From Parcubacteria group bacterium (GTDB lineage: Bacteria > Patescibacteriota > Minisyncoccia > Phycocordibacterales > DATDWN01): DNA of 52,162 nucleotides. Shown here in pieces: positions 20,209 to 32,180 of the stretch. The notes below the pieces were generated by a model, which saw only the letters and a program-made list of their open reading frames with translations, ran no database searches and had not been told where the DNA came from. The translations under genes were made by a program, and so were the position numbers. The stretch is taken from NCBI GenBank assembly GCA_040079825.1, contig JBEBJP010000001.1, forward strand, positions 1 through 52,162, read 5' to 3'. Numbering within the stretch: position 1 is the stretch's first letter; each line of letters opens with the position of its first letter.

Positions 20209-20304
20209 ACGACTACCCCTACGAGACTCTTTCGTTGAACAAACGAACCAATATTTAGTGTTACATCTGTATAAATAAATGTCAAGTAAATAGACTAAAA
20301 ATAA

Positions 20305-20344
20305 AACAAAAAACCACTATTTTGGATTAGTGGTTTTTTGTTTT
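20305..20344. terminator. Bidirectional terminator-like hairpin
   Basis: Stem AACCACTA (20312-20319) / TAGTGGTT (20328-20335), flanked by an A-run and a T-run. Confidence 0.6.
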
Positions 20345-20426
20345 AAACAATCCTTTTATTTTCATGCCTATATTCTTCAATTGCTCGAGTCCAAGCCATA
20401 CGCAAAAATATTTACAATATTTTTTT

Positions 20427-20642
20427 GCTGTGTTTCTTGAATGAAGTTAGAACTTTTTTCCAAAATAATTCTAACTCTGACTAATGAATTCCGTCACGGC
20501 TCGGCATCCGTTCCAGAACACGCTGGGAGCGTGTTCCTCCACTTCTGCCGACCCGCTCCGCCCTCGCCTCGCCACCGTATTCATTCTAGGTTTTTTGGCG
20601 CGACTTCCTTTTTGATTTGGTATGTCGGTGGCGGTCTCGGGC
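20427..20642 (+). repeat. Inverted repeat IR-A, left copy (216 bp)
   Basis: Exact reverse complement of 30057-30272 wherever I compared. Spurious ORFs 20441..20707 and 30031..30258 translate identically for 67 aa. Confidence 0.9.
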
Positions 20643-21175
20643 GGGTTTCTCTTGAAAGAGAAACTGACGGAATTCACTCGGTGACGGACGTTTGCTGTGC
20701 TTCCTAGATTTTATCATAACGGCTCATATCGTGGTATGTGAGCCGTTCACTTGTTGTCTCGTGCTTATTTCTCGCTAGTGGCAGTCCGTGGGTGCAACCC
20801 TCGGCATCCGCCTCGGGCATTTCCGCTAGGGCTACGAGCGCCTAGATTGCTAGGAGTTCTGCTTATTCCTCGCTTCGCTCGGAATGCAGAACATCTGTTT
20901 GGGGGAAGGAAGGAATCCTTCCCCCAGCTTCGCCTCGGTTCGTGCGTCCGCTTCGCGGCGCATTCCGCAGAGCGGAACAGGGCTCACCCCACCCGGCTCG
21001 CACAACCCCCTTTCTCGTTTTCATATTCATGTTCGTAGTGTCGCTTCCGATTTGACTGGAAAAGACTTTGAAAACGGCGGCGCTCGTCAGATACCGGACG
21101 CCCTAGCGGAAATGCCCGAGGCTGCATCTTGTGTGTTTGACCCACCCTCCCAGTTCGCACACACATTTTGCTCCC
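20485..21175 (+). ncRNA. Candidate large structured RNA (unclassified), GC-rich and ORF-poor
   Basis: Nested perfect helices: 20811-20832/21100-21121 (22 bp), 20485-20496/20665-20676 (12 bp). Hairpins at 20516-20536, 20718-20747, 20856-20892 and 20901-20925. Only R/P/A-rich shadow ORFs are present. The strand call is based on a single T-G wobble, so it is tentative. Confidence 0.45.
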
Positions 21176-21625
21176 TTAGATTTTTGAATACGAAACTCCT
21201 TTTCCAGTTTTACCACTTTGCTTTATTTTATTTTCTTTCTCCAGTATTTCTAGGTATCGTGTTGCTGTTGCGTCAGATACACGCAAAAACTTTTCTACTT
21301 CATCGTTGGTTATATTTGTTCGCTTCGCGAACAAAGTCATGATGTGATCGAGTTTCTTTCTTTTTCGAGTTTGGATTGCAAATCGTGCTTTGTTCAGCAA
21401 ATCTCTTGCGAGATTTGGTTTAGGAGACACAGGCTCCGCCTGTGTAGGAGAAGATGCAGGAGCAGAATCGGTTTCGACCGATTCGGGTTCGGGTTCAACT
21501 TGTTTCGTTTCCGAAACAGATTCAGAAACTAACGGCTCACTTGGTGGTACTTGAGCCGTTTGAGGTTGTGGTTCGATTGGAGCTTCTGATGAGATGTCTA
21601 TATTTGGAGCTATTTCGTCACTCAT
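21176..21625 (-). CDS. Acidic/Pro-rich protein with C-terminal winged-helix DNA-binding domain (candidate regulator)
   Basis: 149 aa. The C-terminus ITNDEVEKFLRVSDATATRYLEILEKENKIKQSGKTGKGVSY is wHTH-like. The ATG lies 6 nt after a TATAAT box, so the mRNA is probably leaderless. Confidence 0.6.
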   Translation of the reverse strand: MSDEIAPNIDISSEAPIEPQPQTAQVPPSEPLVSESVSETKQVEPEPESVETDSAPASSPTQAEPVSPKPNLARDLLNKARFAIQTRKRKKLDHIMTLFAKRTNITNDEVEKFLRVSDATATRYLEILEKENKIKQSGKTGKGVSYSKI

Positions 21626-21629
21626 CTAA

Positions 21630-21716
21630 ATATTATATACCAAACGGCTCATTTGGTAAGCCGTATTTTCAGCGTTTTTGACTTGACAAAGAGAGTGAAG
21701 TGTGCTAAGATAGATA
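21630..21716. promoter_or_regulatory. Divergent promoter/operator module, copy 1
   Basis: Rightward: TTGACA 21683-21688, 17 nt, TAAGAT 21706-21711. Leftward: TTACCA (21655-21660 rc), 16 nt, TATAAT (21632-21637 rc). The palindrome ACCAAA-N7-TTTGGT lies at 21639-21657. The module is near-identical to 24087-24170. Confidence 0.7.
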
Positions 21717-21769
21717 ACAGAGGGGAGGCGTTACGCCAAACCCAACAGTTTCGCCCATAGGAGGGCACC

Positions 21770-22423
21770 ATGCAGAACATTCTGATCATTGAAGACACCC
21801 TGAAGCACCAAGCGGCGGCGCGAGCACAGTTTCCGGAGGCAGTTGTCGTCAACTACGACGAAGCCTACGAGCTCCTGCGCGACGCACGTCACGGCGACTA
21901 CTCGGCGATCCTCACGGACCTCCACTTCAAGACGGAGAGGAACAGGATCATCCCGGCCATGCCCTTCGGCCCGCAATTCGAGCGGAACGACGGGGCGATC
22001 GGCAAGGAGTTCCCGTTCGGCCTCTGCTTCGCGCTGAAAGGCGTCGAGCTCGGGATTCCGGTCGTGATCGTCAGCGACGCCGACCATCACTCCGACATGG
22101 TCACCGCCATGCTGGATATGATGGGTTTCCTCGTTCAACCACGCGGTGGCAAGGACGAGAAGCGACACTTCATCAAAGGTGGAGGACGTGGTCCCGAGTC
22201 GTTCAGCTGGGAGAATCGGGTTCAGAATCCCCGGTTGATCAGCAAGATGTCCAACTGTCCGAAGGCGGAGGACATGCACTGGAACGGCGACGAGATCGTG
22301 TCCGCACCCCCGGTGAAGCCGGAACCGTACACCGAGCAGGGTTGGAAAACCTACGCGAACAGTCAGGTGAAAGACTGGCGCGAGGCACACCGGCTTCTCT
22401 CTGCTGTCATGGCCGAGTCGTAG
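21770..22423 (+). CDS. Receiver (REC)-like domain protein with unknown C-terminal half (GC-rich cassette 3)
   Basis: 217 aa. SD AGGAGGG. NILIIEDT...AILTDLHF...VVIVSD resembles a CheY-like fold. Strong G/C third-position bias. The antisense ORF 21731..22390 is a shadow. Confidence 0.6.
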   Translation: MQNILIIEDTLKHQAAARAQFPEAVVVNYDEAYELLRDARHGDYSAILTDLHFKTERNRIIPAMPFGPQFERNDGAIGKEFPFGLCFALKGVELGIPVVIVSDADHHSDMVTAMLDMMGFLVQPRGGKDEKRHFIKGGGRGPESFSWENRVQNPRLISKMSNCPKAEDMHWNGDEIVSAPPVKPEPYTEQGWKTYANSQVKDWREAHRLLSAVMAES

Positions 22424-22488
22424 TACAAAAGGATTCGTGCTCTTCTCCTTAAAAGAGAGCTCCTAGCAGTGGTGGTCAACTGTAGTGG

Positions 22489-22516
22489 CGTCACGATATT
22501 ATCGTGGCGTTTTTTG
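22489..22516 (+). terminator. Terminator of cassette 3
   Basis: Stem CGTCACGA/TCGTGGCG (8 bp, one G-U), loop TATTA, then TTTTTT. Confidence 0.7.
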
Positions 22517-22521
22517 TTTAT

Positions 22522-23553
22522 TTATTTTTGATTTCCCAAGATATAACCCTCAAACTTTTTTGCCAAATCATACACAGTATTTTTTGCTGGTGAATCAGGA
22601 CAGTTTTCTAGAAAACTAAGAATGTTGTCTGTGTATTCCGTGTGTGTAAATTTAGGTAAGTTGTTTTCTCCTGTAAAAGCTCCAATGAATTTAACTAAAT
22701 GAGATTTAAAATCAGCTAATTTAATCATTTTTCCTCCATCGGAAATATGTTTCAGTTTCTCATAGTATTCTTTTACCTGTTCTCCTTTGTAATCTTTTGG
22801 ATGAGATACTTCATCTACCATATCTGCCACTCTTTTTCCAAAAATTCTTTCTATTTGCTCATATGTAGCAGAAGTATCTTCAAGAGTGTCGTGAAGAAGT
22901 CCGGCAATTAAAACTTCTTCATCCTCTATTCCAAACTCTTCTTTAAGAATCTGGCATACTTCCAGAAAATGATTTCCAGTTTCTATTTCAGCAAATTTTT
23001 TACTTGCGAATTTCTTTGCTAGTTCAATTGGATTTTCTACTGTCTCCTTAGTAACATCCTCAAAGTTATACTCTTTCATTTCTAAAGCTCTTTTCATGAG
23101 ATGATCGCCAATCTCACCCCATTTGATATATTCTTTATAATCTTTTGGATCAATTAGTTTTATTTCTAAAATATCTCCATCTGGATCTTTCTCAAATTCT
23201 CCATATGGTTTAACAATACAAAACATCCTAAATTGTCTTGCTATCCCATTTCCATATGACACTTCTACATCTTGATATCCAATACATTCAATATGAAGAA
23301 CTTTCATGTTCGATTCTTCTTTTATTTCCCGTATAGCGGCTTCAGTATATGTTTCTCCTTTCTCAATAGCTCCACCTGGGGGAGTCCAGTTGTTATCTGC
23401 TCCGTGACCGACAATGACTAGTTTGTCTCCATAGAAACAATACGAATGAACACCATCCTTTGTCTCATCAGGAGTTTCTAATTCGGGAACTCCGTCAGTA
23501 TAAGTGACTTTATAAGTTTTTCCTCTATGATCAAATTGAGTTTTTATTTGCAT
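22522..23553 (-). CDS. Nudix hydrolase fused to SpoT/RelA-type HD phosphohydrolase domain
   Basis: 343 aa. Nudix box [23 protein letters not shown]. The HD motif LLHDTLEDT lies in the C-terminal half. The gene overlaps the upstream rdgB-like gene by 23 nt. Confidence 0.8.
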
Positions 23554-24082
23554 TTAAGTATTCTTTAAGTTTTTCAACTGCTATTTTTCTCATGCTGAAA
23601 GAATTTTTCTCTTCAGCAGTCAATTCTCCAAAAGTTTTATCGTATCCTTCAGGCTGAAAGATTGGGTCCCAACCAAATCCGCCCTCACCTCGTGGAGAAA
23701 CTATTGTGCCTTTGGTATTACCTTCAAAGAACTCAACATTCCCAGATGAATCGGAGTAGCCAATTACAACTTTTGCTTCTGCGTTGTAGTTTCCAAATGT
23801 CTCTGCCAATTTATATAAACCTTCTTTTTGGATAGTCTTTAAGAACCACTTTATGAAAGGTCCAGGAAGTCCATTCATAGCTTCGAGATACAGCGAATTA
23901 TCCTCAACAATAAATTCTCCTTTCTGGTGCTTCTGTGCTTCTTCTAGCTTAGCCTTGATTATTTTGTGTGCATCCATTTCTTGGATTTCGGGCAAATCAA
24001 TATCAAGAGCCTCAACATCTCCTAAAATACTTTGAACTTCAGCTAGCTTACCTTTGTTACCTGTAATGAAATATAGTGACAT
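23531..24082 (-). CDS. rdgB: Non-canonical purine NTP pyrophosphatase (RdgB/HAM1 ITPase)
   Basis: [16 protein letters not shown]...[19 protein letters not shown] is the typical HAM1 family pattern. The start was set at the ATG at 24082, about 7 nt after the leftward TATAAT, so the mRNA is probably leaderless. The track ORF extends to 24121. Confidence 0.85.
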
Positions 24083-24086
24083 ATCC

Positions 24087-24170
24087 ATATTATATACCAA
24101 ACGGCTCATTTGGTAAGCCATATTTTCCGCGTTTTTGACTTGACAAAGAGATTGAGAAGGTGTATAATAG
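24087..24170. promoter_or_regulatory. Divergent promoter/operator module, copy 2
   Basis: Rightward: TTGACA 24140-24145, 17 nt, TATAAT 24163-24168. The palindrome ACCAAA-N7-TTTGGT lies at 24096-24114. The ~65-bp core is almost identical to copy 1. Confidence 0.7.
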
Positions 24171-24271
24171 TACTAGAATTCCTATTCGTTATGGATAGGT
24201 GGCTCCTAGGAGCAACGGGGTTATTTTTCCTACCTCGACCAAAGGAAATCGTTCGTTTACAGGAGGTCGTT

Positions 24272-24604
24272 ATGACCAATACAGCACAGAGAGAACTCGT
24301 TGCGGGTCCATCACGTGAAGAACTCTTCGACGCACTTCGGCTTCGGCACGAAGGACGCAAGGTCACCTTCACAGTGGCTCCGTCACACATCACTGGCCGA
24401 GTACTTGCTGGAGGACGAAGGTTCGTTCCCGGCAACCTGGCCTTCCATGTTCACGTGATCGAACTCGGCAACGAGAACGATGGCAACGGTACCAACTGGC
24501 TGTTCAAACTCTACGACGAGCACGCTGTTCTCGGCTCGATGTACCTCGAAGGATACATCAATCTCACGACTCGCAAGGGTTACGTGAGACCCGCCACGAA
24601 CTAG
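24272..24604 (+). CDS. Hypothetical protein (110 aa), GC-rich cassette 4
   Basis: SD AGGAGG lies 6 nt upstream of the ATG. It has a coding-like G/C third-position bias, its own promoter and a strong terminator. No family recognised. Confidence 0.55.
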   Translation: MTNTAQRELVAGPSREELFDALRLRHEGRKVTFTVAPSHITGRVLAGGRRFVPGNLAFHVHVIELGNENDGNGTNWLFKLYDEHAVLGSMYLEGYINLTTRKGYVRPATN

Positions 24605-24616
24605 GCGATCGCAAAC

Positions 24617-24664
24617 GCTCCACACTGAAAAGCTTCACAGCTTTCACAGTGTGGAGCTTTTCTT
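24617..24664 (+). terminator. Terminator of cassette 4
   Basis: 11-bp stem GCTCCACACTG/CAGTGTGGAGC with an inner AAAGCT/AGCTTT hairpin, then a T-run. Confidence 0.75.
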
Positions 24665-24693
24665 GTATAAAAAATGATATACTTTTAGTTAAT

Positions 24694-24900
24694 ATGGCAC
24701 AGAAAATTATTTTAAAATGTGATAAATGCGGAAAAGAATTTGAACTTATGGTTGGTCATCTAAAAAGTACAGCGGGTAAAGTTCCTGACGAAGAAATAGA
24801 ACAGAAAGATGGCAAGAAAGCTAAAGTTTTCGTCTCAGAAATATTTAATCATAAGTGTGATGGAAAAATATCTCTAGAAACTGGAGCATTCGTGGATTAA
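24694..24900 (+). CDS. Small zinc-ribbon-like protein (68 aa)
   Basis: MAQKIILKCDKCGKEF...HKCDGKI has CxxC and a distal HxC. It is AT-rich. Its stop codon overlaps the stop of the DUF3800-like gene on the opposite strand. Confidence 0.45.
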   Translation: MAQKIILKCDKCGKEFELMVGHLKSTAGKVPDEEIEQKDGKKAKVFVSEIFNHKCDGKISLETGAFVD

Positions 24901-25838
24901 AATAATTTCGATTGATTTGGATTATGCTCAAAAGCTAGATCGATTTTAGATATATCATAATAATTATCCATTGATCTGATAATTGATCCGGGAACAGAGT
25001 TTATTTTAGGGAAAAATGATAAATGAAATCTATTACTATGCCCGTATTTACTATTTGTGTTTCTAGATTGTCGAATAATTCTCTTAATTAATAATTCTTG
25101 AACTATATTTGAGTTTAAAATCTCCCTTTTATTCTCATTTTTCTTGCTTTCAAAGATACCGCAATGAATATCTTTGTATATACCCGCAAGAATATCGCAC
25201 AATTCTAGTATATTGGATAAAGGATTATCCCTATGGCTTTTTGGTAAAAATTCTATTCTTTCGCATTTAAAATTTAAATGTTCGTCTTGGTCTAATTTAA
25301 AAATAGTATGCCAATCAAAATAATCATGTTCTTGTTGCGAGCCTTCTTCGTGGTAGATATTCTCAACAACCACTCCTGATCCAAAGAATTTTTTAAGAGA
25401 ATACTGAAGCATCGATCTGAAAAATCTATTGTAAATAGAGTTTAACTTTTGTTTGTCACTAAACTCCTCAATGTTAAGATTTGTAAGGTTTATAGCCGTG
25501 AGAGAAAAGTAAAATTTTCTGTCTGAAAAACAATCATCCTGTATAAATTTTAACCATCTTTCTATAATAAATTTCTTGTTAGCATCTTTACCAAAATCTA
25601 CCCAATGTATATCAGTATCATTCTCCTCCTTGCGGGACTCCCAATCTTCTTTATCTTTTAAATAACGTAGATTTATTAGATCTTCGAGAATTGGCTTATC
25701 GAGTCTTTCGTAAATAGCCACAGAGTATATCCACACTTCACTCGTTATTTTATTTTTTGTCTGCCATATCTCATCAGAATAGATATTTACATGAATCGCT
25801 TTTTTTGGATCAATTGAATCCCCGAATAAATCAATCAT
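24897..25838 (-). CDS. DUF3800-like protein, last gene of the R-M operon
   Basis: 313 aa. The N-terminal VNIYSDE and C-terminal LELCDILAGIY resemble the DUF3800 DES...ADxxAG pattern as I remember it. The gene starts 6 nt after the res stop. Confidence 0.5.
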   Translation of the reverse strand: MIDLFGDSIDPKKAIHVNIYSDEIWQTKNKITSEVWIYSVAIYERLDKPILEDLINLRYLKDKEDWESRKEENDTDIHWVDFGKDANKKFIIERWLKFIQDDCFSDRKFYFSLTAINLTNLNIEEFSDKQKLNSIYNRFFRSMLQYSLKKFFGSGVVVENIYHEEGSQQEHDYFDWHTIFKLDQDEHLNFKCERIEFLPKSHRDNPLSNILELCDILAGIYKDIHCGIFESKKNENKREILNSNIVQELLIKRIIRQSRNTNSKYGHSNRFHLSFFPKINSVPGSIIRSMDNYYDISKIDLAFEHNPNQSKLF

Positions 25839-25844
25839 AGATTA

Positions 25845-28076
25845 TTATCTCAAATCTAAAAATTTCCAATCTTTAAGATTATTCGGGTTGTATTCGTATT
25901 TCAACTTATCATGATAACGCCAACTATTTTTTTCTTTCAGTACAATCCCACCATATAATTTTTTACCTTTCTTGTTTTGCTCTGTAATATATTTTGCTAG
26001 TCCTTCGGCTCGTGATTTTGCTGTTTCAGCAGTAAGTCCTCCTTTCGTATCAAACAAACCAACATGACCTCCTTTTTGCATTACAACAAAATCAACATAA
26101 AACGGCTTCTCAACTCCATGCTCAATATGAGGTACAGCAAAATAAGAACCGTCTTTTGTCCCATTTTTAAACCACCATTCAACTGATTTTGATTTTTCTA
26201 AAAATTCTATGAAATCAACTTCAAGTTGACTATCCTCAAACAAATCTTCTGTTGCTGTTCCAGATTTTCTTGTGTAATAAGGTTGTATTATTGATTTTTT
26301 GTAATCTTTCTTTGCAAAAGATAAGGTATAGTTTATTACTTTCGGTACGTTCCATGGCTCTTCATTTTTTAGTAACTCATTTTTACCTTTTCCAACTTCT
26401 TCTTGGTACATCTCTTTTGCAAGATTGATAGTGTTAGTCATTATTTGTTGATTTTCTTCTGCAAGAACAGCGGCTTGAATCTTCGGCCATTCATCTTCGT
26501 TTCGTGATGCTTCGAAAAATGAATATATTGAGCTTTTTATACGACCGATTGAGCGTTGTTCTGGTGCGAATGGCGCAAGATTATTTCGAGCAAACATATC
26601 AAATGCGTTCTGCAATTCAACTTCGTTTTTAGGAATATCGAGTGTTCCTTTTTTCTCAATATTTTTTGATTCCTTGTCAGCGTCAGTGATCCGACCACTT
26701 GCGATTAAACTTGTTTTCAGAATGCTGTGTTTAAACGAAAATTTTTCCTTTAATTTCAATTTTTTACCAGCTTCAATAAAAAGAGGGGTGAAATCAGATG
26801 AAAGTCGTGTCTCCTCACGGAAGCGTTTTGAGTGGTAAGATAACAAATCAAGATTTTTATAATTCTTTATCCTAAGTCCTGTAAAAGTCGTAATGTAATC
26901 ACGCGACAAATCCTCTGCGACATTTATATCCTGCAAACTCGTAAATACATAGCCAACATTCAAGTCTTGATCGGCGTAATGTTTCTGTTCGGGCATACGC
27001 ATTATGCGCCCAAGTGTTTGGATAGAGAAAGTGATATTTTCTTCACGCCATTGTCTAAACAAAACCAAAATTGTCGCACGAGGACAATCCCAGCCAAGCG
27101 AAATTGCTTGCTTAAATATCATCACATCAACTTCGTTTTCGTTTTTCTCAATATTTGCTAGATTTATTTTATTATCCTTATCAGAGAGATATATCGCGAG
27201 TCGTCCATTTTCTGTTGTGTAACCAAATTTCTTGAGCAAAGCGATAATCTCATCCTTTTTATCGGATACTCCCTGCATGGCATCCGGTAATTGAATAAGT
27301 AAAAGAGGATTTACACTCGAGCCTTCGGCTTCGAGTTTTTTATGTAATTCAATTCGCTTTTTTAACGCACTTTCAAGCACGAGTTCGTCTGCCGATTTAT
27401 CGCTTTTCTTTTTATCAATAATGTAATGCTCAAAGCCCGGATTTATAATAATCTCTTTCTTGATCATCTCCTCATCCTTTACATCTTTGAGTTCCACCTC
27501 CACGATTCTATTTGCTCCAAGTTGTGGAGTTGCTGAAACTTCAATCGTAATTTTTGGTCCAATATCCTGTATTAGTTCCTTTGATTTTTCACTATTTGCT
27601 GTGTGATGACTTTCATCAATAATAAGAAAAATCATTCTGCCCTCATCTTTTGTGCGAGCAATAACACTCGTCAAATTATTATCTCGTTCGTTTGCGCGCA
27701 CATAAAGATTGTCTTTTTTATTGATACTTGCCCAGTTCAAGAATAAAATCTCATTTTCGCTAATCTTGCGGTCATCTAAATCTTCAAAATACGAACATTT
27801 TATCCCTACGCCGTTTTGGTCATAGTATTTTCTTAAATTGTTCCTGCTCTGGTCGTGTAATTTATTTACAGCAATCCATATAAACGAAAATTTTTTACTA
27901 TCTATACGAGAATCAATTAAACGCTTCAAAAACTCTGCCATCATCAGAGTTTTACCAGAACCAGTGGGTGCTTTAAAAATACAAACTTTACTTCCGTCTG
28001 TATCTAATAGTTCGTTGATTTCTCGTTTCAACTTTACGACTGCATTTTCTTGATAATTTTTGAATTCAAATATCAT
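25845..28076 (-). CDS. res: Type III restriction enzyme Res subunit (SF2 helicase-nuclease)
   Basis: 743 aa with helicase motif I KAPTGSGKT and motif II IIDESHH. It lies immediately downstream of mod. Confidence 0.85.
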   Translation of the reverse strand: MIFEFKNYQENAVVKLKREINELLDTDGSKVCIFKAPTGSGKTLMMAEFLKRLIDSRIDSKKFSFIWIAVNKLHDQSRNNLRKYYDQNGVGIKCSYFEDLDDRKISENEILFLNWASINKKDNLYVRANERDNNLTSVIARTKDEGRMIFLIIDESHHTANSEKSKELIQDIGPKITIEVSATPQLGANRIVEVELKDVKDEEMIKKEIIINPGFEHYIIDKKKSDKSADELVLESALKKRIELHKKLEAEGSSVNPLLLIQLPDAMQGVSDKKDEIIALLKKFGYTTENGRLAIYLSDKDNKINLANIEKNENEVDVMIFKQAISLGWDCPRATILVLFRQWREENITFSIQTLGRIMRMPEQKHYADQDLNVGYVFTSLQDINVAEDLSRDYITTFTGLRIKNYKNLDLLSYHSKRFREETRLSSDFTPLFIEAGKKLKLKEKFSFKHSILKTSLIASGRITDADKESKNIEKKGTLDIPKNEVELQNAFDMFARNNLAPFAPEQRSIGRIKSSIYSFFEASRNEDEWPKIQAAVLAEENQQIMTNTINLAKEMYQEEVGKGKNELLKNEEPWNVPKVINYTLSFAKKDYKKSIIQPYYTRKSGTATEDLFEDSQLEVDFIEFLEKSKSVEWWFKNGTKDGSYFAVPHIEHGVEKPFYVDFVVMQKGGHVGLFDTKGGLTAETAKSRAEGLAKYITEQNKKGKKLYGGIVLKEKNSWRYHDKLKYEYNPNNLKDWKFLDLR

Positions 28077-28077
28077 A

Positions 28078-29790
28078 TTATTTAAAAATTTCCCGATACA
28101 CTTTCAATATTACCTCTGGTATTGCACAAAGCGTTACCTTATCCTTAACATCAACAAATTTCTTTGCGTGCGGGTCATCACCCATAGAAAAAACATAAGT
28201 GTTGAAATGCCCATTAATTTTTTTAATTGCTTTTTTATAGTCCTCTATTGATTCCTCATAGAAAATGACTCCGACATATTTATCAGTATTTTTGAAAATC
28301 TTGAATTCGTCTGTTTCTTGTATAAGCTCAAAAGCATTTTCCAAAATACAAAGCATATCAGCCGATTCTTTAACTAATTTTCTTTTATTTTTATCTGTCG
28401 GCTCAGCCTCGACAAAATCAGTAGTGTAATATTTCAGATTTCCACCAAGTCCCTCTTCCATATCTCCCTTAGTTTTCTTGTATCCCTTAATTGATTTTTT
28501 AATTCTTGGGTAGCAAATATCAGAAGCAATTTTGTGTTCAGATTTTTCGTCACCATTATTTGTACATAATATAAAAGACCTTTTTCCTCCATCTTCTTTA
28601 TTTAAAGCAAGCACAGCTTGTCCAGTTGTTCCTGAGCCAGCCATAAAGTCTAAGACAACAGCATTTTTATCTCCAATTAACTGAAGTATCTGTTTAATTA
28701 AACGAGTCGGTTTTGGTGTAGAAAAAAGTTCATCAGACTGCTCGAAAAAGTCCTTTAATTCTTTTTTTGCCTCATCGGTGTGTCCTGCTTGTTCATGTAG
28801 AAATATAGTAGACGCCTTTCGTCCTTGTTGCACTTCATCTAAAAATTGCTTGAGGGACGGGAAGGCATTTCCATTTTTACCAAAATAAAGTCTATTATCT
28901 TTTTGTAATTCAAGCATGTTGTCTTGTGCGTAAGACCAATGTTTACCACTAGGAGCATTAAATTTATCTCCCTTTGGTCCCGTTATAATGTAATGTCCAT
29001 TTTTTCGCTCCTCATTTGCGACTATATCACCTGGCTTCCAGACTCCGCGTGGGTCATTATCAGGATTTTTATAACGAGCGTTCATTTTATCTGTTCTAGG
29101 TAAGAGTTGAACATTAAGATGTTCTATATTTTTTGCATAGACCAAAATGTATTCGTGATCAACAGAAATGTGGCGTGATTGATTCTTTGGACTATATGCT
29201 CTTTGCCAAATTATTGTAGATACAAAATTTTGTTCTCCAAAAATTTCATCACAAAGCATTTTTAATGGTGCTTGTTCGTTATCATCAATACTTATAAAAA
29301 TTGCGCCCATTTCTTTTAAAATAAATCGGGAAAGTTTTAATCGCTTCTCCATAAAAGAAAGCCATTTACTGTGTCTGAAACTATCCTCTTTGTCTACAAA
29401 CTTATCATTATAGATAAAATCGTTATTACCTGTATTATAAGGCGGATCAATGTATATCAAATCTACAGCTTCGCGGTGTGTGAAATTAAGAACAGCAAGA
29501 GAATGATAATTGTCACCTTCAATCAAAAGATTAACGAGTTTTGATTTATCAGATTCAATGGCTTTCCCTTTAACTTCTTTTAAAACAGGAAATGGCTTAC
29601 CCGCCATTTCGTTGGGGAATAGTTCATTTGGAGTTCGTGCGTCAGGATTAACGAGAATATCAATTTTTTCTTCAGGTAAATCACGATGCCAAACAAGCCC
29701 ATATGTCGTGCTTTTAATTTTTACAATCTCCTTGATCAATTCCTCCTTTGACCAAGCATCATATTCTTTTCCGTTTATCTTTTTTGACAT
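28078..29790 (-). CDS. mod: Type III R-M Mod DNA methyltransferase (N6-A/N4-C class)
   Basis: 570 aa with catalytic motif IYIDPPYNTGN and the AdoMet motif LDFMAGSGTTGQA in beta-class order. Confidence 0.9.
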   Translation of the reverse strand: MSKKINGKEYDAWSKEELIKEIVKIKSTTYGLVWHRDLPEEKIDILVNPDARTPNELFPNEMAGKPFPVLKEVKGKAIESDKSKLVNLLIEGDNYHSLAVLNFTHREAVDLIYIDPPYNTGNNDFIYNDKFVDKEDSFRHSKWLSFMEKRLKLSRFILKEMGAIFISIDDNEQAPLKMLCDEIFGEQNFVSTIIWQRAYSPKNQSRHISVDHEYILVYAKNIEHLNVQLLPRTDKMNARYKNPDNDPRGVWKPGDIVANEERKNGHYIITGPKGDKFNAPSGKHWSYAQDNMLELQKDNRLYFGKNGNAFPSLKQFLDEVQQGRKASTIFLHEQAGHTDEAKKELKDFFEQSDELFSTPKPTRLIKQILQLIGDKNAVVLDFMAGSGTTGQAVLALNKEDGGKRSFILCTNNGDEKSEHKIASDICYPRIKKSIKGYKKTKGDMEEGLGGNLKYYTTDFVEAEPTDKNKRKLVKESADMLCILENAFELIQETDEFKIFKNTDKYVGVIFYEESIEDYKKAIKKINGHFNTYVFSMGDDPHAKKFVDVKDKVTLCAIPEVILKVYREIFK

Positions 29791-29792
29791 AA

Positions 29793-29999
29793 TTATTTCA
29801 AAAGTTCGTCAGTTGAAACTCCTAGAGATTTTGCAATTTTGGAGATAGTTGAGAGTGTTGGGTTTGTTTTTCCGTTTTCAATAGTACTGATAAAACCGCG
29901 ACTAAGTCCTAACTCCCGAGCAATATCGCCCTGCGATATTGCCTTTTTTGTCCTAATTCTTTTCAGATTTAGCCCTAACTTTGCCGACTCATTTTTCAT
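29793..29999 (-). CDS. XRE-family HTH protein (controller C-protein-like)
   Basis: 68 aa: LKRIRTKKAISQGDIARELGLSRGFISTIENGKTNPTLSTISKIAKSLG. It is the first gene of the mod-res operon. Confidence 0.85.
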   Translation of the reverse strand: MKNESAKLGLNLKRIRTKKAISQGDIARELGLSRGFISTIENGKTNPTLSTISKIAKSLGVSTDELLK

Positions 30000-30008
30000 T
30001 ATCCACAG

Positions 30009-30053
30009 TATATCGTATTGTTATAGTCTATCACAATGTTATGATATATCGTA
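30009..30053. promoter_or_regulatory. Candidate operator: two TATATCGTA direct repeats upstream of the C-protein gene
   Basis: The 9-mers at 30009-30017 and 30045-30053 lie between the C-protein ATG (29999) and IR-A. Confidence 0.35.
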
Positions 30054-30056
30054 ACA

Positions 30057-30272
30057 GCCCGAGACCGCCACCGACATACCAAATCAAAAAGGAAGTCGCG
30101 CCAAAAAACCTAGAATGAATACGGTGGCGAGGCGAGGGCGGAGCGGGTCGGCAGAAGTGGAGGAACACGCTCCCAGCGTGTTCTGGAACGGATGCCGAGC
30201 CGTGACGGAATTCATTAGTCAGAGTTAGAATTATTTTGGAAAAAAGTTCTAACTTCATTCAAGAAACACAGC
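30057..30272 (-). repeat. Inverted repeat IR-A, right copy (216 bp)
   Basis: Reverse complement of 20427-20642. Its outer end overlaps IR-B by 2 nt. Confidence 0.9.
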
Positions 30273-30401
30273 CCTGAGTGCAATTTAGAAAAGTGAGTAA
30301 AATCCGGAGCGTCACGCAGTGACGCAAATCGGCAATCCGCCGGAATCCGCCAAGGCATTTTGAAATCTGAAACCAGAATTCGATTCGCCACGATGGGGTT
30401 C
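30271..30401 (+). repeat. Inverted repeat IR-B, left copy (131 bp)
   Basis: Reverse complement of 31841-31971 with one mismatch (30393). After a 34-nt insert (30402-30435, two 6-bp hairpins), a further 11 bp (30436-30446) match 31830-31840. Confidence 0.9.
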
Positions 30402-30485
30402 CTGCTTATTAAAGCAGTATGAGTAGTAACTCATTGAGCCAATCTTGAAGCAATAATTACAAGCGATACTTAACATAAACTTTCT

Positions 30486-32030
30486 ATGTCTAACAACAAA
30501 TTCTTTCTCTATGCTCGTAAATCTACGGACGAACCTGATCGTCAGATATTAAGTATTGAGTCGCAGATTGATGAGCTGAAAGAATTTGCTGTGCGAGAGC
30601 AATTGGAAATTGTTGAAACTTTTATTGAGTCACAAACCGCCAAAGAACCTGGTCGTCCCATTTTCAACAATATGCTCTCGCTCATGGAAAAAGGTAAGGC
30701 TTCGGGAATTTTGGCGTGGCATCCCGATCGTTTGGCGAGAAATAGTGTTGATGGTGGAAAAATTATTTATTTATGTGATATCGGTAAAATTTTGGAGCTA
30801 AAATTCCCGACGTTTTGGTTTGATTCCACTCCTCAAGGTAAGTTTATGTTAAATATCGCTTTTGGGCAGAGCAAATACTATGTGGACAATCTTTCAGAGA
30901 ATGTAAAACGTGGCTTGAGAACAAAAGTGAGGCGAGGCGAACAGTCCGGTCAAGCTCCGACAGGATATTTGAACGATATGATAAACAAAAAGATGCTTCC
31001 CGATCCGGAACGGTTTCGCCTCGTCAGACGGATGTTTGAACTCTACGCCACAGGGAATTATTCTCTGAAAGCTGTCCGTGATTTGCTCGCCCAAAAAGGC
31101 TTGGTATCTAAAAGTGGTAAAGTTCTCTCTATTTCAAACACACAAATGATATTGAGTAATCCGTTTTATTATGGAATGTTTGTATTTAACAAGGAACTTT
31201 ACCAAGGAAAGCACGAGCCAGCGATTTCAAAGAAACTTTTTGATGCGTGTCACGAGATAATGCTACGAAACGCTCATCCGATGAAGCGAGGAATTAACCA
31301 GCATGTCTTTCGCGGACTTTTGAAATGTGCAGAATGTGGTTGTGGTATTACAAGCGAAGTGAAGAAAGGTCATATCTACTATCGCTGTACTAAAAAGAGA
31401 GATGTCTGCACACAACCGTATGTCCGCGAAGAATCCCTCGCAACACAGATGAGTGACACAATCAAAAAAGTTTCTTTGTCGTCAGAGTGGAAGGATTGGT
31501 TGCTCGCTGAACTAGACAAGGAACAAGCGAGCACCTTCCACTCAGACGCCCTTTTCGTTCAAAATCTGAAAAATCAGATAATTAAGGTTGAGGAGTTGTT
31601 AGAGAAGCTTTTAGACGCTCATTTGGACAGTACAATATCGAGTGGGGAATACGTCGCGAAAAAGCAAAAGCTCCTCAACCAAAAAGTTGATTTTTCAGAG
31701 AAACTTAAGGATTTTGAACGAAAAGGCAATCGTTGGCTCGAACTTTCTAAACAATTTATTTTAGACTGTAACCAAGCCGTAATTATTGCTTCCGGAGAAA
31801 ATCTCGAAGAGAAAAGAGATTTTCTCAAAAAGATTGGCTCGAACCCCACCGTGGCGAATCGAATTCTGGTTTCAGATTTCAAAATGCCTTGGCGGATTCC
31901 GGCGGATTGCCGATTTGCGTCACTGCGTGACGCTCCGGATTTTACTCACTTTTCTAAATTGCACTCAGGGCTGCCAGACTTGGACTCGAACCAAGATACA
32001 CGCCTCCAGAGGGCGCGGTCCTACCATTAG
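30486..32030 (+). CDS. Large serine recombinase (resolvase domain + recombinase domain + zinc ribbon + coiled coil); true 3' end uncertain
   Basis: FLYARKSTDEPDRQILSIESQ carries the catalytic Ser region. A zinc ribbon is present (CAECGCGITSE...YYRC). From about aa 452 the frame runs through IR-B and stops inside tRNA-Gln. Confidence 0.85.
   Translation: MSNNKFFLYARKSTDEPDRQILSIESQIDELKEFAVREQLEIVETFIESQTAKEPGRPIFNNMLSLMEKGKASGILAWHPDRLARNSVDGGKIIYLCDIGKILELKFPTFWFDSTPQGKFMLNIAFGQSKYYVDNLSENVKRGLRTKVRRGEQSGQAPTGYLNDMINKKMLPDPERFRLVRRMFELYATGNYSLKAVRDLLAQKGLVSKSGKVLSISNTQMILSNPFYYGMFVFNKELYQGKHEPAISKKLFDACHEIMLRNAHPMKRGINQHVFRGLLKCAECGCGITSEVKKGHIYYRCTKKRDVCTQPYVREESLATQMSDTIKKVSLSSEWKDWLLAELDKEQASTFHSDALFVQNLKNQIIKVEELLEKLLDAHLDSTISSGEYVAKKQKLLNQKVDFSEKLKDFERKGNRWLELSKQFILDCNQAVIIASGENLEEKRDFLKKIGSNPTVANRILVSDFKMPWRIPADCRFASLRDAPDFTHFSKLHSGLPDLDSNQDTRLQRARSYH
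31841..31971 (-). repeat. Inverted repeat IR-B, right copy
   Basis: See the left copy. Its outer end is the discriminator base of tRNA-Gln. Confidence 0.9.
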
Positions 32031-32041
32031 ACGATCTGGCA
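31971..32041 (-). tRNA. tRNA-Gln (anticodon CTG)
   Basis: Hand-folded cloverleaf: TGCCAGA TC GTCT AATGGTA GGAC C GCGCC CTCTGGA GGCGT GTAT CTTGG TTCGAGT CCAAG TCTGGCA G. It has U1-A72 and G73, as in Gln tRNAs. Confidence 0.85.
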
Positions 32042-32180
32042 ATGAGTAAAAGATACTCTAAAATAGAGCTTTTTACAAGAAGAATATTGGGTGAAAACCA
32101 AGACTACTTATTCTTCTTTGGCTTCTTCTTTTCTTTTCTATGTGTTTCACCTTTTGACATAACTTTATTATAATACAAAA

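Follow-up and report, generated by a model that had tools for sequence, protein, structure and literature searches.

A probable large serine recombinase element with an inverted second attachment region at a tRNA-Gln gene of a Parcubacteria genome

The elements moved by large serine recombinases, as in the systems of phiC31, Bxb1, SPbeta SprA, SCCmec CcrAB, Tn4451 TnpX and Anabaena XisF, follow a common plan: the recombinase gene lies at one end, one specific site with few shared bases is used, and the ends carry no long direct repeats. Here, we describe a locus that shares this plan, including the domain architecture of the enzyme, and extends it. The locus lies in a contig of 52,162 nt (JBEBJP010000001.1, assembly GCA_040079825.1) from a Parcubacteria group bacterium of the Patescibacteriota; this whole stretch is called the window below. 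We consider it likely that 20427-31973 of the window is an integrative element of 11.5 kb, placed at the 3' end of a tRNA-Gln gene by its own large serine recombinase. Unlike the elements listed above, it has a tRNA 3' end as its target, which is a habit of tyrosine integrases, its crossover falls inside the recombinase open reading frame (ORF), and in place of a single attP per element it keeps a second, inverted and intact attachment region. It is best filed as a large serine recombinase integrative element that departs from the others in target, crossover position and second attachment region. No description of this layout was found in the literature searched in full text.

The locus shares individual features with several other systems. 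As in the invertible segments of Hin, Gin, Cin and Pin, a recombinase gene lies next to one segment (A) and inside another (B), inverted repeats enclose each segment and carry the crossover sites at their ends, and both orientations occur in nature, in the present family between genomes. However, those invertases are proteins of about 180-200 aa, with a catalytic domain and a C-terminal helix-turn-helix (HTH), whereas the present enzyme has 514 aa with Recombinase, zinc-ribbon and coiled-coil regions; moreover, the repeat ends here double as insertion junctions at a tRNA, and there is no common pair of switched genes. The yeast 2-micron plasmid, with FLP/FRT in 599-bp inverted repeats, and the plastid flip-flop are closer in topology, in that the circular form proposed below would be split by two identical inverted repeats holding the recombinase site, isomers exist and the identity of the repeat copies is maintained. 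Unlike the 2-micron plasmid, the element uses a serine and not a tyrosine recombinase, and its circle is only predicted. Domain scans found no replication genes in the cargo of the window element or of its minimal relatives, and some elements of the family are only about 4 kb long, which makes an amplification role unlikely.

Shufflons of the R64 type likewise consist of adjacent segments bounded by inverted sites with a shared junction, and one relative of the present locus (L030) shows a chain of the form B..B' / A..A' / B..B' (arms as defined below). In shufflons, however, the tyrosine recombinase Rci acts at short sfx sites and rearranges the C-termini of pilV, while the sites here are halves of the attachment site of a mobile element. 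Tn3 and gamma-delta place a serine recombinase site, res, between the divergent genes tnpA and tnpR; the site considered here also lies between divergent genes, and binding to it could autoregulate both. The parallel is incomplete in that res resolves cointegrates between direct repeats, and autoregulation in the present case is a hypothesis. Finally, tRNA-targeting islands and tycheposons are also small cargo islands inserted site-specifically at tRNA 3' ends, and tycheposons mostly employ tyrosine integrases, with a minority of large serine recombinases (10.1101/2020.12.28.424599). They differ in regenerating the tRNA end from a direct repeat, and an inverted duplication of the attachment region is not described for them.

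The layout of the locus is defined by two abutting inverted repeats. The repeat finder and a self-BLAST of the window both return a perfect repeat, 20427-20642 being the reverse complement of 30057-30272 (216 nt, 100%, spacing 9414 nt), and a match of this length and quality in 52 kb cannot arise by chance. This pair had been reported correctly in a first-pass annotation of the window, which took it for a free-standing pair of inversion sites. A repeat search of the window found a second pair, 30269-30401 and 31841-31973 (133 nt, 99%), which overlaps the right arm of the first by 4 nt, encloses the recombinase gene and stops with its outer end at the 3' end of tRNA-Gln. We name the arms A (20427-20642, plus strand), A' (30057-30272, minus strand), B (30269-30401, plus strand, 5' of the recombinase gene) and B' (31841-31973, plus strand). 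A'+B is an uninterrupted unit of 345 nt (30057-30401), with a CAGC core at 30269-30272 where the two arms overlap. Its reverse complement reads as B' followed by A, with the 4-nt core in common, and this B'A order is present only as separated halves: B' lies far to the right against the tRNA (attR, B'/tRNA), A lies far to the left (attL, flank/A), and the break falls at GCTG, found at 20427-20430 and again at 31970-31973. The 216-nt repeat is thus one part of a split 345-nt inverted duplication, and the break points of that duplication are the ends of the whole element. If a circle carried two inverted copies of the attachment region and were opened by a crossover inside one of them, its insertion would produce the observed layout, with A'B intact and B'A split. 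Two shadow ORFs that run through the arms (20441-20707, plus strand; 30031-30258, minus strand) do have identical translations, as had been pointed out, because of the inverted repeat; the result is a trivial consequence of it.

The gene directly outside the A' arm, where the first-pass annotation had correctly placed a recombinase, occupies 30486-32030 on the plus strand and encodes a large serine recombinase of 514 aa with the Pfam domains Resolvase, Recombinase and Zn_ribbon_recom; the coiled-coil, at residues ~330-450, is judged only from heptad-like sequence. The closest named families in NCBIfam are CcrB, XisF, CcrC and CcrA, at ~100 bits or less against cut-offs of 375-900, and solved structures are matched only weakly (SPbeta/YokA, E about 1e-5). 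The comparison originally made with P1 cin and Mu gin stands for the arrangement, a repeat beside a serine recombinase with segment inversion in relatives, and fails for the enzyme, which is of the integrase type; membership in the Cin/Gin/Hin group is rejected, since the protein is not a small invertase. The recombinase ORF runs through B', over the crossover core and into the tRNA in antisense, the last 18 residues, in the integrated state, being encoded by the antisense of the tRNA. Were B' joined to A, the predicted tail of the protein would be CFLNEVRTFFQNNSNSD. The B arm is the reverse complement of part of the 3' coding region of the recombinase, residues 450-496 being encoded antisense at 30409-30269 (tblastn). 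Homologues with E <= 1e-50 number at least 7910, and the relatives come almost all from metagenome-assembled genomes of Patescibacteria. Among annotated phages and plasmids they reach at most 33% identity, and no relatives were found in viral contigs. Exact-protein look-ups with the left-flank ORFs and the recombinase gave either no record or contigs that were too short.

The target, tRNA-Gln(CTG), lies at 31968-32042 on the minus strand (ARAGORN; Rfam tRNA, 54.7 bits at 31971-32041). By junction alignment, the crossover falls in the final acceptor-stem bases and discriminator of this tRNA, and because of that position the tRNA remains intact. Alignments of the junctions of 14 loci show that flank/A, B'/A (in the intact copy) and B'/tRNA have a core of 3-14 nt in common; at tRNA-Ala elements B' contributes TGGTGG, the complement of the CCACCA end of the tRNA. 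Insertion is thus site-specific, with a short common core and without long direct repeats. On both sides, the element is bordered by ordinary chromosomal genes, for sigma-70, DUF5667 and PNPOx on the left and for CTP synthase, FtsX/FtsE and RF on the right. The left flank also has a terminator-like hairpin (20302-20345, minus strand), with an 18-pair stem and a T run, located 82 nt beyond the left junction on the tRNA strand. This hairpin is probably the native terminator of tRNA-Gln, which the insertion would have moved ~11.5 kb away from its gene. An Rfam search at a permissive threshold, covering both arms, the G+C-rich region described below and the recombinase region, returned the tRNA only.

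The same architecture recurs in dozens of genomes of Patescibacteria. We surveyed the window together with 80 genome loci that encode recombinase relatives, 81 loci in all. B-type repeats surround the recombinase gene in 50 of the 81, and most of the remaining 31 are interrupted by contig ends. A tRNA gene lies within 12 nt of the outer end of the B repeat at 35 of the 50, and an A-type repeat abuts B at 16 of the 50; many of the loci without an A repeat start less than 250 nt from B and so are not assessable for A. Four further loci with a truncated recombinase gene show the A pair. The family order is [A]-cargo-[A'][B]-recombinase-[B']-tRNA, and ten tRNA species are targeted, by clade: Gln, Ala, Asn, Ser, Gly, Glu, Asp, Val, Ile and Arg. 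The sequences that show the layout include one complete genome (L056, CP055308.1), one assembly at chromosome level (L064, OZ244939.1) and one contig of 634 kb (L039). The intact, inverted second attachment copy is found at 30057-30401 in the window and in about 20 relatives. Very many other members of the family lie on contigs of 1.7-2.4 kb or at the ends of contigs whose sequence begins within the repeats (L003, L004, L008, L013, L017-L019 and others).

A 68-aa regulator of the Xre/HTH_3 type (29793-29999, minus strand; Pfam HTH_3, E = 3.8e-17), divergent from the recombinase gene, belongs to the same conserved arrangement. Its start codon ends at 29999 and the right arm ends at 30057, which leaves the gap of 57 nt to the regulator/mod/res operon that had been noted earlier; a promoter-like site of the regulator gene lies in these unique 57 nt, outside the repeat. 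The first-pass annotation had called the product the C protein of a restriction-modification (R-M) system. More than 20 related loci have a homologue adjoining A', on the upstream side of the recombinase, and homologues hold this place in elements without any R-M genes, such as L009 and L044. Because of this, the protein is, by position, the element's own conserved core regulator and not an R-M C protein.

How are the two copies of the attachment region kept alike? Within genomes, 37 of the 50 B pairs and 13 of the 16 A pairs are at least 98% identical. Between genomes, the alignable part of A is limited to the core-proximal ~59 nt, which are also the conserved first part of the A arm in the window, the remainder being a G+C-rich hairpin domain. 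High identity within genomes combined with divergence between them is the mark of concerted evolution, as judged from the aligned repeats. Arm lengths differ among elements, A being about 150-330 nt and B about 70-150 nt long. In many elements, whose genomes are AT-rich, the A arms form long hairpins of high G+C content, the stem being kept while the sequence differs, and the B arm of the window holds a perfect hairpin, GCGTCAC-TGC-GTGACGC. The inner edge of the A arm falls within a predicted hairpin stem, and the inner ends of B lie inside the recombinase coding region at varying points. Since arm lengths vary and the inner ends miss module borders, selection probably acts on the duplicated core site, from which the homology of the long, perfect arms would have spread.

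These observations can be accommodated by a simple cycle. The recombinase would insert a circular form of the element at the tRNA 3' end by a crossover at the GCTG/CAGC core. The split copy would be the one used for integration, its A half becoming the left end and its B' half the right end, inside the recombinase ORF. Excision would join B' to A and generate a circle made up of a recombinase segment (1.4 kb) and a cargo segment (9.4 kb), with two 345-nt inverted repeats between them. Either attachment copy should then be usable for integration. Exchange between the copies, catalysed perhaps by the recombinase at the core or by RecA along the 133-216 nt of homology, would invert the recombinase or the cargo segment while leaving the junction sequences unchanged. 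Gene conversion over 130-330 nt of homology would suffice to keep the copies identical.

Evidence on mobility comes from near-identical sequences with alternative flanks at the core. One contig (L165) matches the window in the A arm (216/216), the 57-nt spacer, the regulator gene and mod (99.9%); precisely at GCTG, the match gives way to an unrelated flank of 1275 nt. In three others (L169-L171), the recombinase (99% aa) and B' adjoin a tRNA-Gln whose far flank departs from the window beyond 32087; on its other side, L169 also has 101 nt of the L165 flank. In addition, a Logan unitig identical to 33370-31970 of the window comes to an end precisely on the first base of the core. With a unitig k-mer length that we take to be 31, this end is 26 nt short of the break that the repeat by itself would force, so that the graph branches at the crossover, which fits a second allele in the sample. 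The flanks of L165 and L169-L171 and the unitig end are indirect support, from sequence comparison, for recent movement.

Two of these contigs have peculiarities of their own. L169 is a near-identical element without cargo, in which 102-169 reads from the flank into A(1-26), the next 15 nt inverted, and the reverse complement of A(27-1), followed by B, recombinase, B' and tRNA-Gln. The structure has the appearance of a snap-back deletion that pivoted on an 8-nt stem inside A, or the contig could be chimeric. The foreign flank of L165 (500-1275) contains several degenerate copies of the tRNA-Gln 3' end (CTGCCAGACTTGGA...), some of them as inverted pairs round G+C-rich hairpins; they may be remnants of earlier insertions.

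Orientation isomers are found among the relatives. The standard order, regulator(-) A'B recombinase(+) B' tRNA(-), holds at about 23 loci, and about 5 are non-standard. Relative to its close relative L007, L005 has the whole cargo inverted: a regulator-like ORF adjoins the left arm in L005, and the homologue of the left-end gene of L007 stands inverted at the right end. L030 has the regulator gene beside the distal copy, together with a second, partial recombinase gene, and its cargo is inverted. At L021 the tRNA lies on the 5' side of the recombinase and the regulator gene at the far end, both segments being inverted relative to the tRNA, which is the outcome expected from integration via the other copy. 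L172 has the order recombinase, intact B'A, regulator gene, with the recombinase inverted relative to the regulator, and its protein P0008 bears the tail predicted for the B'/A junction. At L014 and L062 the tRNA again lies on the 5' side of the recombinase. Comparing synteny with relatives, as the first-pass annotation had advised, therefore does reveal opposite cargo orientations (L005 against L007; L030), although with a strong bias and in loci whose repeats have decayed. Orientation is secure only where the repeats have diverged, as in L005 (87%), L030 (92%) and L021 (91%). Judging from these loci, inversion has certainly happened in this family; both orientations are seen between genomes, and there are no conserved switched genes.

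What the spare copy does may be approached through three candidates, in order of preference. By analogy with res between tnpA and tnpR, it is possibly an operator for autoregulation of the divergent genes. It might instead serve to turn the recombinase gene round with respect to transcription that reads through from the tRNA promoter and runs antisense to that gene in the standard state. Lastly, it might preserve the split ends by acting as a template for conversion. Insulation may be a further role of the hairpin-rich arms.

Distant relatives bear on the origin of the duplication, which is absent from L078-L080, L173 and L174, all with recombinases of 36% identity or less. Three loci have the 3' end of the recombinase gene against a tRNA gene and have no repeats: L079 (34%) and L173 and L174 (26-28%). 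The last two (L173, 844-2389; L174, 7589-9156) are unannotated 'Bacteriophage sp.' contigs from human faeces and the best matches in the phage collection; their recombinase 3' ends abut tRNA-Leu and tRNA-Glu, respectively, on the opposite strand, without inverted repeats. Targeting of tRNA ends by these recombinases thus reaches beyond Patescibacteria. The repeat-free outgroups also imply that the duplication is derived within the Patescibacteria subfamily and is not needed for tRNA targeting.

A few family members are unusual in other respects. L060 (11371-11560) combines both repeats with the core of the tRNA-Ala clade, TGGTGG, yet has no tRNA gene at its right junction, and may be a secondary-site insertion. 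Second, diverged large serine recombinase genes lie left of the element at L030 (3-928), L007 (1043-2020, just left) and L001 (4112-5140), and in L030 one cargo is flanked by two recombinase genes; this suggests tandem accretion at the tRNA.

The cargo of the window element (21176-29792; Pfam and PADLOC scans) comprises a 149-aa ORF (21176-21625), NUDIX-HD (22522-23553), Ham1 (23531-24121), a 313-aa ORF (24897-25838), res (25845-28076) and mod (28078-29790), all on the minus strand, and two high-GC ORFs of 217 aa (21770-22423) and 110 aa (24272-24604) on the plus strand, which have no match in Pfam, NCBIfam or PADLOC. Both Pfam and PADLOC agree with the earlier assignment of mod and res as a Type III R-M pair. 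Cargo differs widely among related elements and includes R-M systems, methyltransferases, an ABC transporter, LysE, a carbamoyltransferase and a reverse transcriptase. A 76-nt direct repeat (92%) is present at 21623-21698 and 24080-24155, each copy beginning at the start codon of a minus-strand gene. Each holds a hairpin and a near-consensus promoter (TTGACA-17-TATAAT / TAAGAT) that faces one of the two high-GC ORFs.

Between the left arm and the cargo lies a conserved non-coding module (20643-21175) with ~55-60% G+C in a genome of 35% G+C. Its helices are long and perfect, for example 20810-20832 pairing with 21100-21122, and fold z-scores for the two strands are -8.0 and -12.6. Homologous blocks adjoin an A arm in L006, L023, L002 and L172 and are also found in L086; in the Gln clade the module is placed at the distal A arm. 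The consensus fold of five sequences, some of them from clipped blocks, has few compensatory changes and limited covariation, and the module has no match in Rfam.

Could the locus instead be a dedicated invertible switch, like the P1 C-segment with cin or the Mu G-segment with gin, in which the 9.4-kb segment flips at high frequency and makes the R-M operon or the G+C-rich region phase-variable? A serine recombinase gene does stand beside a perfect inverted repeat, an identical crossover core at both arm ends makes inversion chemically feasible, and relatives with inverted cargo exist. Considering, however, that the enzyme is of the integrase type and not a ~190-aa invertase, and that the outer repeat ends are insertion junctions at a tRNA, it is difficult to see the locus in this way. 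The cargo is unrelated among elements (ABC transporter, LysE and carbamoyltransferase genes), so that there is no common switched function; the promoter-like site of the regulator gene moves along with the segment; and the observed ratio of orientations, about 23:5, comes with flips in decayed copies. We regard such a switch as distinctly improbable. Another proposal has the arms as symmetric RNA or transcription modules, whether a shared leader/promoter or, more plausibly, bidirectional terminator/insulator hairpins, with their identity a by-product of gene conversion. The leader or promoter version, which the first-pass annotation had offered as its alternative, fits poorly, as transcription of the protein genes next to the left arm is directed towards that arm. 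Cargo genes mostly read the same way, which puts the arm at the 3' end of transcription, as terminators or insulators would have it. Insulators would also block read-through, for instance by the tRNA promoter reading antisense into the recombinase gene, and G+C-rich stems are retained in A arms despite sequence change; the region folds far better than shuffled sequences, and B has its perfect hairpin. Against this, there are no clear T runs after the hairpins inside the arms, the inner edge of the arm cuts a predicted stem, and conservation between elements lies in the core-proximal ~59 nt of A and not in the hairpins. Arms that end exactly at the crossover are also left unexplained. As a full account of the locus this is unlikely, but it is compatible with an integrative element and does not exclude one.

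Two further explanations start from the topology of the repeats. The element might be a four-state device, in which the same enzyme integrates and also flips the recombinase and cargo cassettes by pairing the intact copy with attL or attR, or acts on a folded single strand; we give this a low probability. Alternatively, recombination or precise loss might proceed through a single-stranded intermediate in which pairing of A with A' and of B with B' re-forms a double-stranded attachment site and brings the chromosomal flanks close to each other, by analogy with the folded attP of CTX-phi, integron attC sites or the repeat-stimulated precise excision of Tn10. The arrangement flank/A-cargo-A'B-rec-B'/flank, with the same 4-nt core at three junctions, fits such folding exactly, and the cargo-less L169, where A(1-26) turns back via an 8-nt stem, is what template switching on a folded strand predicts. 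The same topology, however, results from any circle with an inverted repeat that is integrated through one copy, and L169 is possibly a chimera that arose in the library or in assembly. The breaks that serine recombinases make are concerted, double-stranded and placed in duplex sites, and these enzymes are not known to use a single-strand pathway. We regard folding as a very improbable explanation. Finally, the layout could have been a mis-join at a repeat, two elements head to head, or some other one-off accident, and the first-pass annotation had raised an assembly join as a possible source of one copy. Repeats longer than the assembly k-mer are indeed typical mis-join points, and the many family members on short contigs are broken at the repeats. 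Nevertheless, the double-repeat layout occurs in ~20 assemblies that are independent of one another and stem from different studies and lineages, a complete genome among them, and independent contigs reproduce the junction sequences of the window. An assembly artefact is thus effectively refuted and was rejected.

The explanation that we favour, an integrative element with a duplicated attachment region, also has points against it. Phage large serine integrases pair attP only with attB unless a directionality factor is present, so that exchange of the intact copy with attL or attR, if catalysed by the recombinase, would be unorthodox. The repeat-free outgroups leave the purpose of the duplication unexplained. 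Short-read assemblers cannot orient segments between perfect repeats longer than k, and the loci with perfect repeats, as well as L165, are weak evidence on orientation. The standard order strongly predominates (~23 against ~5 loci), the securely assembled flipped loci are those with decayed repeats, and flipping may be rare rather than a working switch. The end of the unitig at the first base of the core has a drop-out of coverage at that base as its other possible cause. An exact search of metagenome contigs for the predicted empty target site gave no match, and 80 loci around CTP-synthase relatives offered no usable empty site, the closest being 76% identical and without synteny of the flanks. 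The circular junction was not recovered in the searches made.

For a very abundant, undescribed family of small cargo islands in the candidate phyla radiation (CPR)/Patescibacteria, the analysis sets out where the elements begin and end, what they target and which genes form their core; none of the recombinase homologues counted above has a functional name. It shows serine integrases aimed at tRNA 3' ends with the crossover inside their own ORF, and a conserved inverted duplicate of the attachment region that has no counterpart among studied serine integrases. This architecture is unexpected for such enzymes and directly testable. If the enzyme does use the duplicate, the accepted rule of attP x attB pairing would need extension, and the family would offer new orthogonal integrase/site pairs, one per tRNA; were the four-state or folded-strand reading true, serine recombinases would be seen to choose their sites in a new way. 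The repeats also explain why short-read CPR assemblies break at these loci. For the organisms themselves, these elements are carriers of R-M systems and other cargo between hosts.

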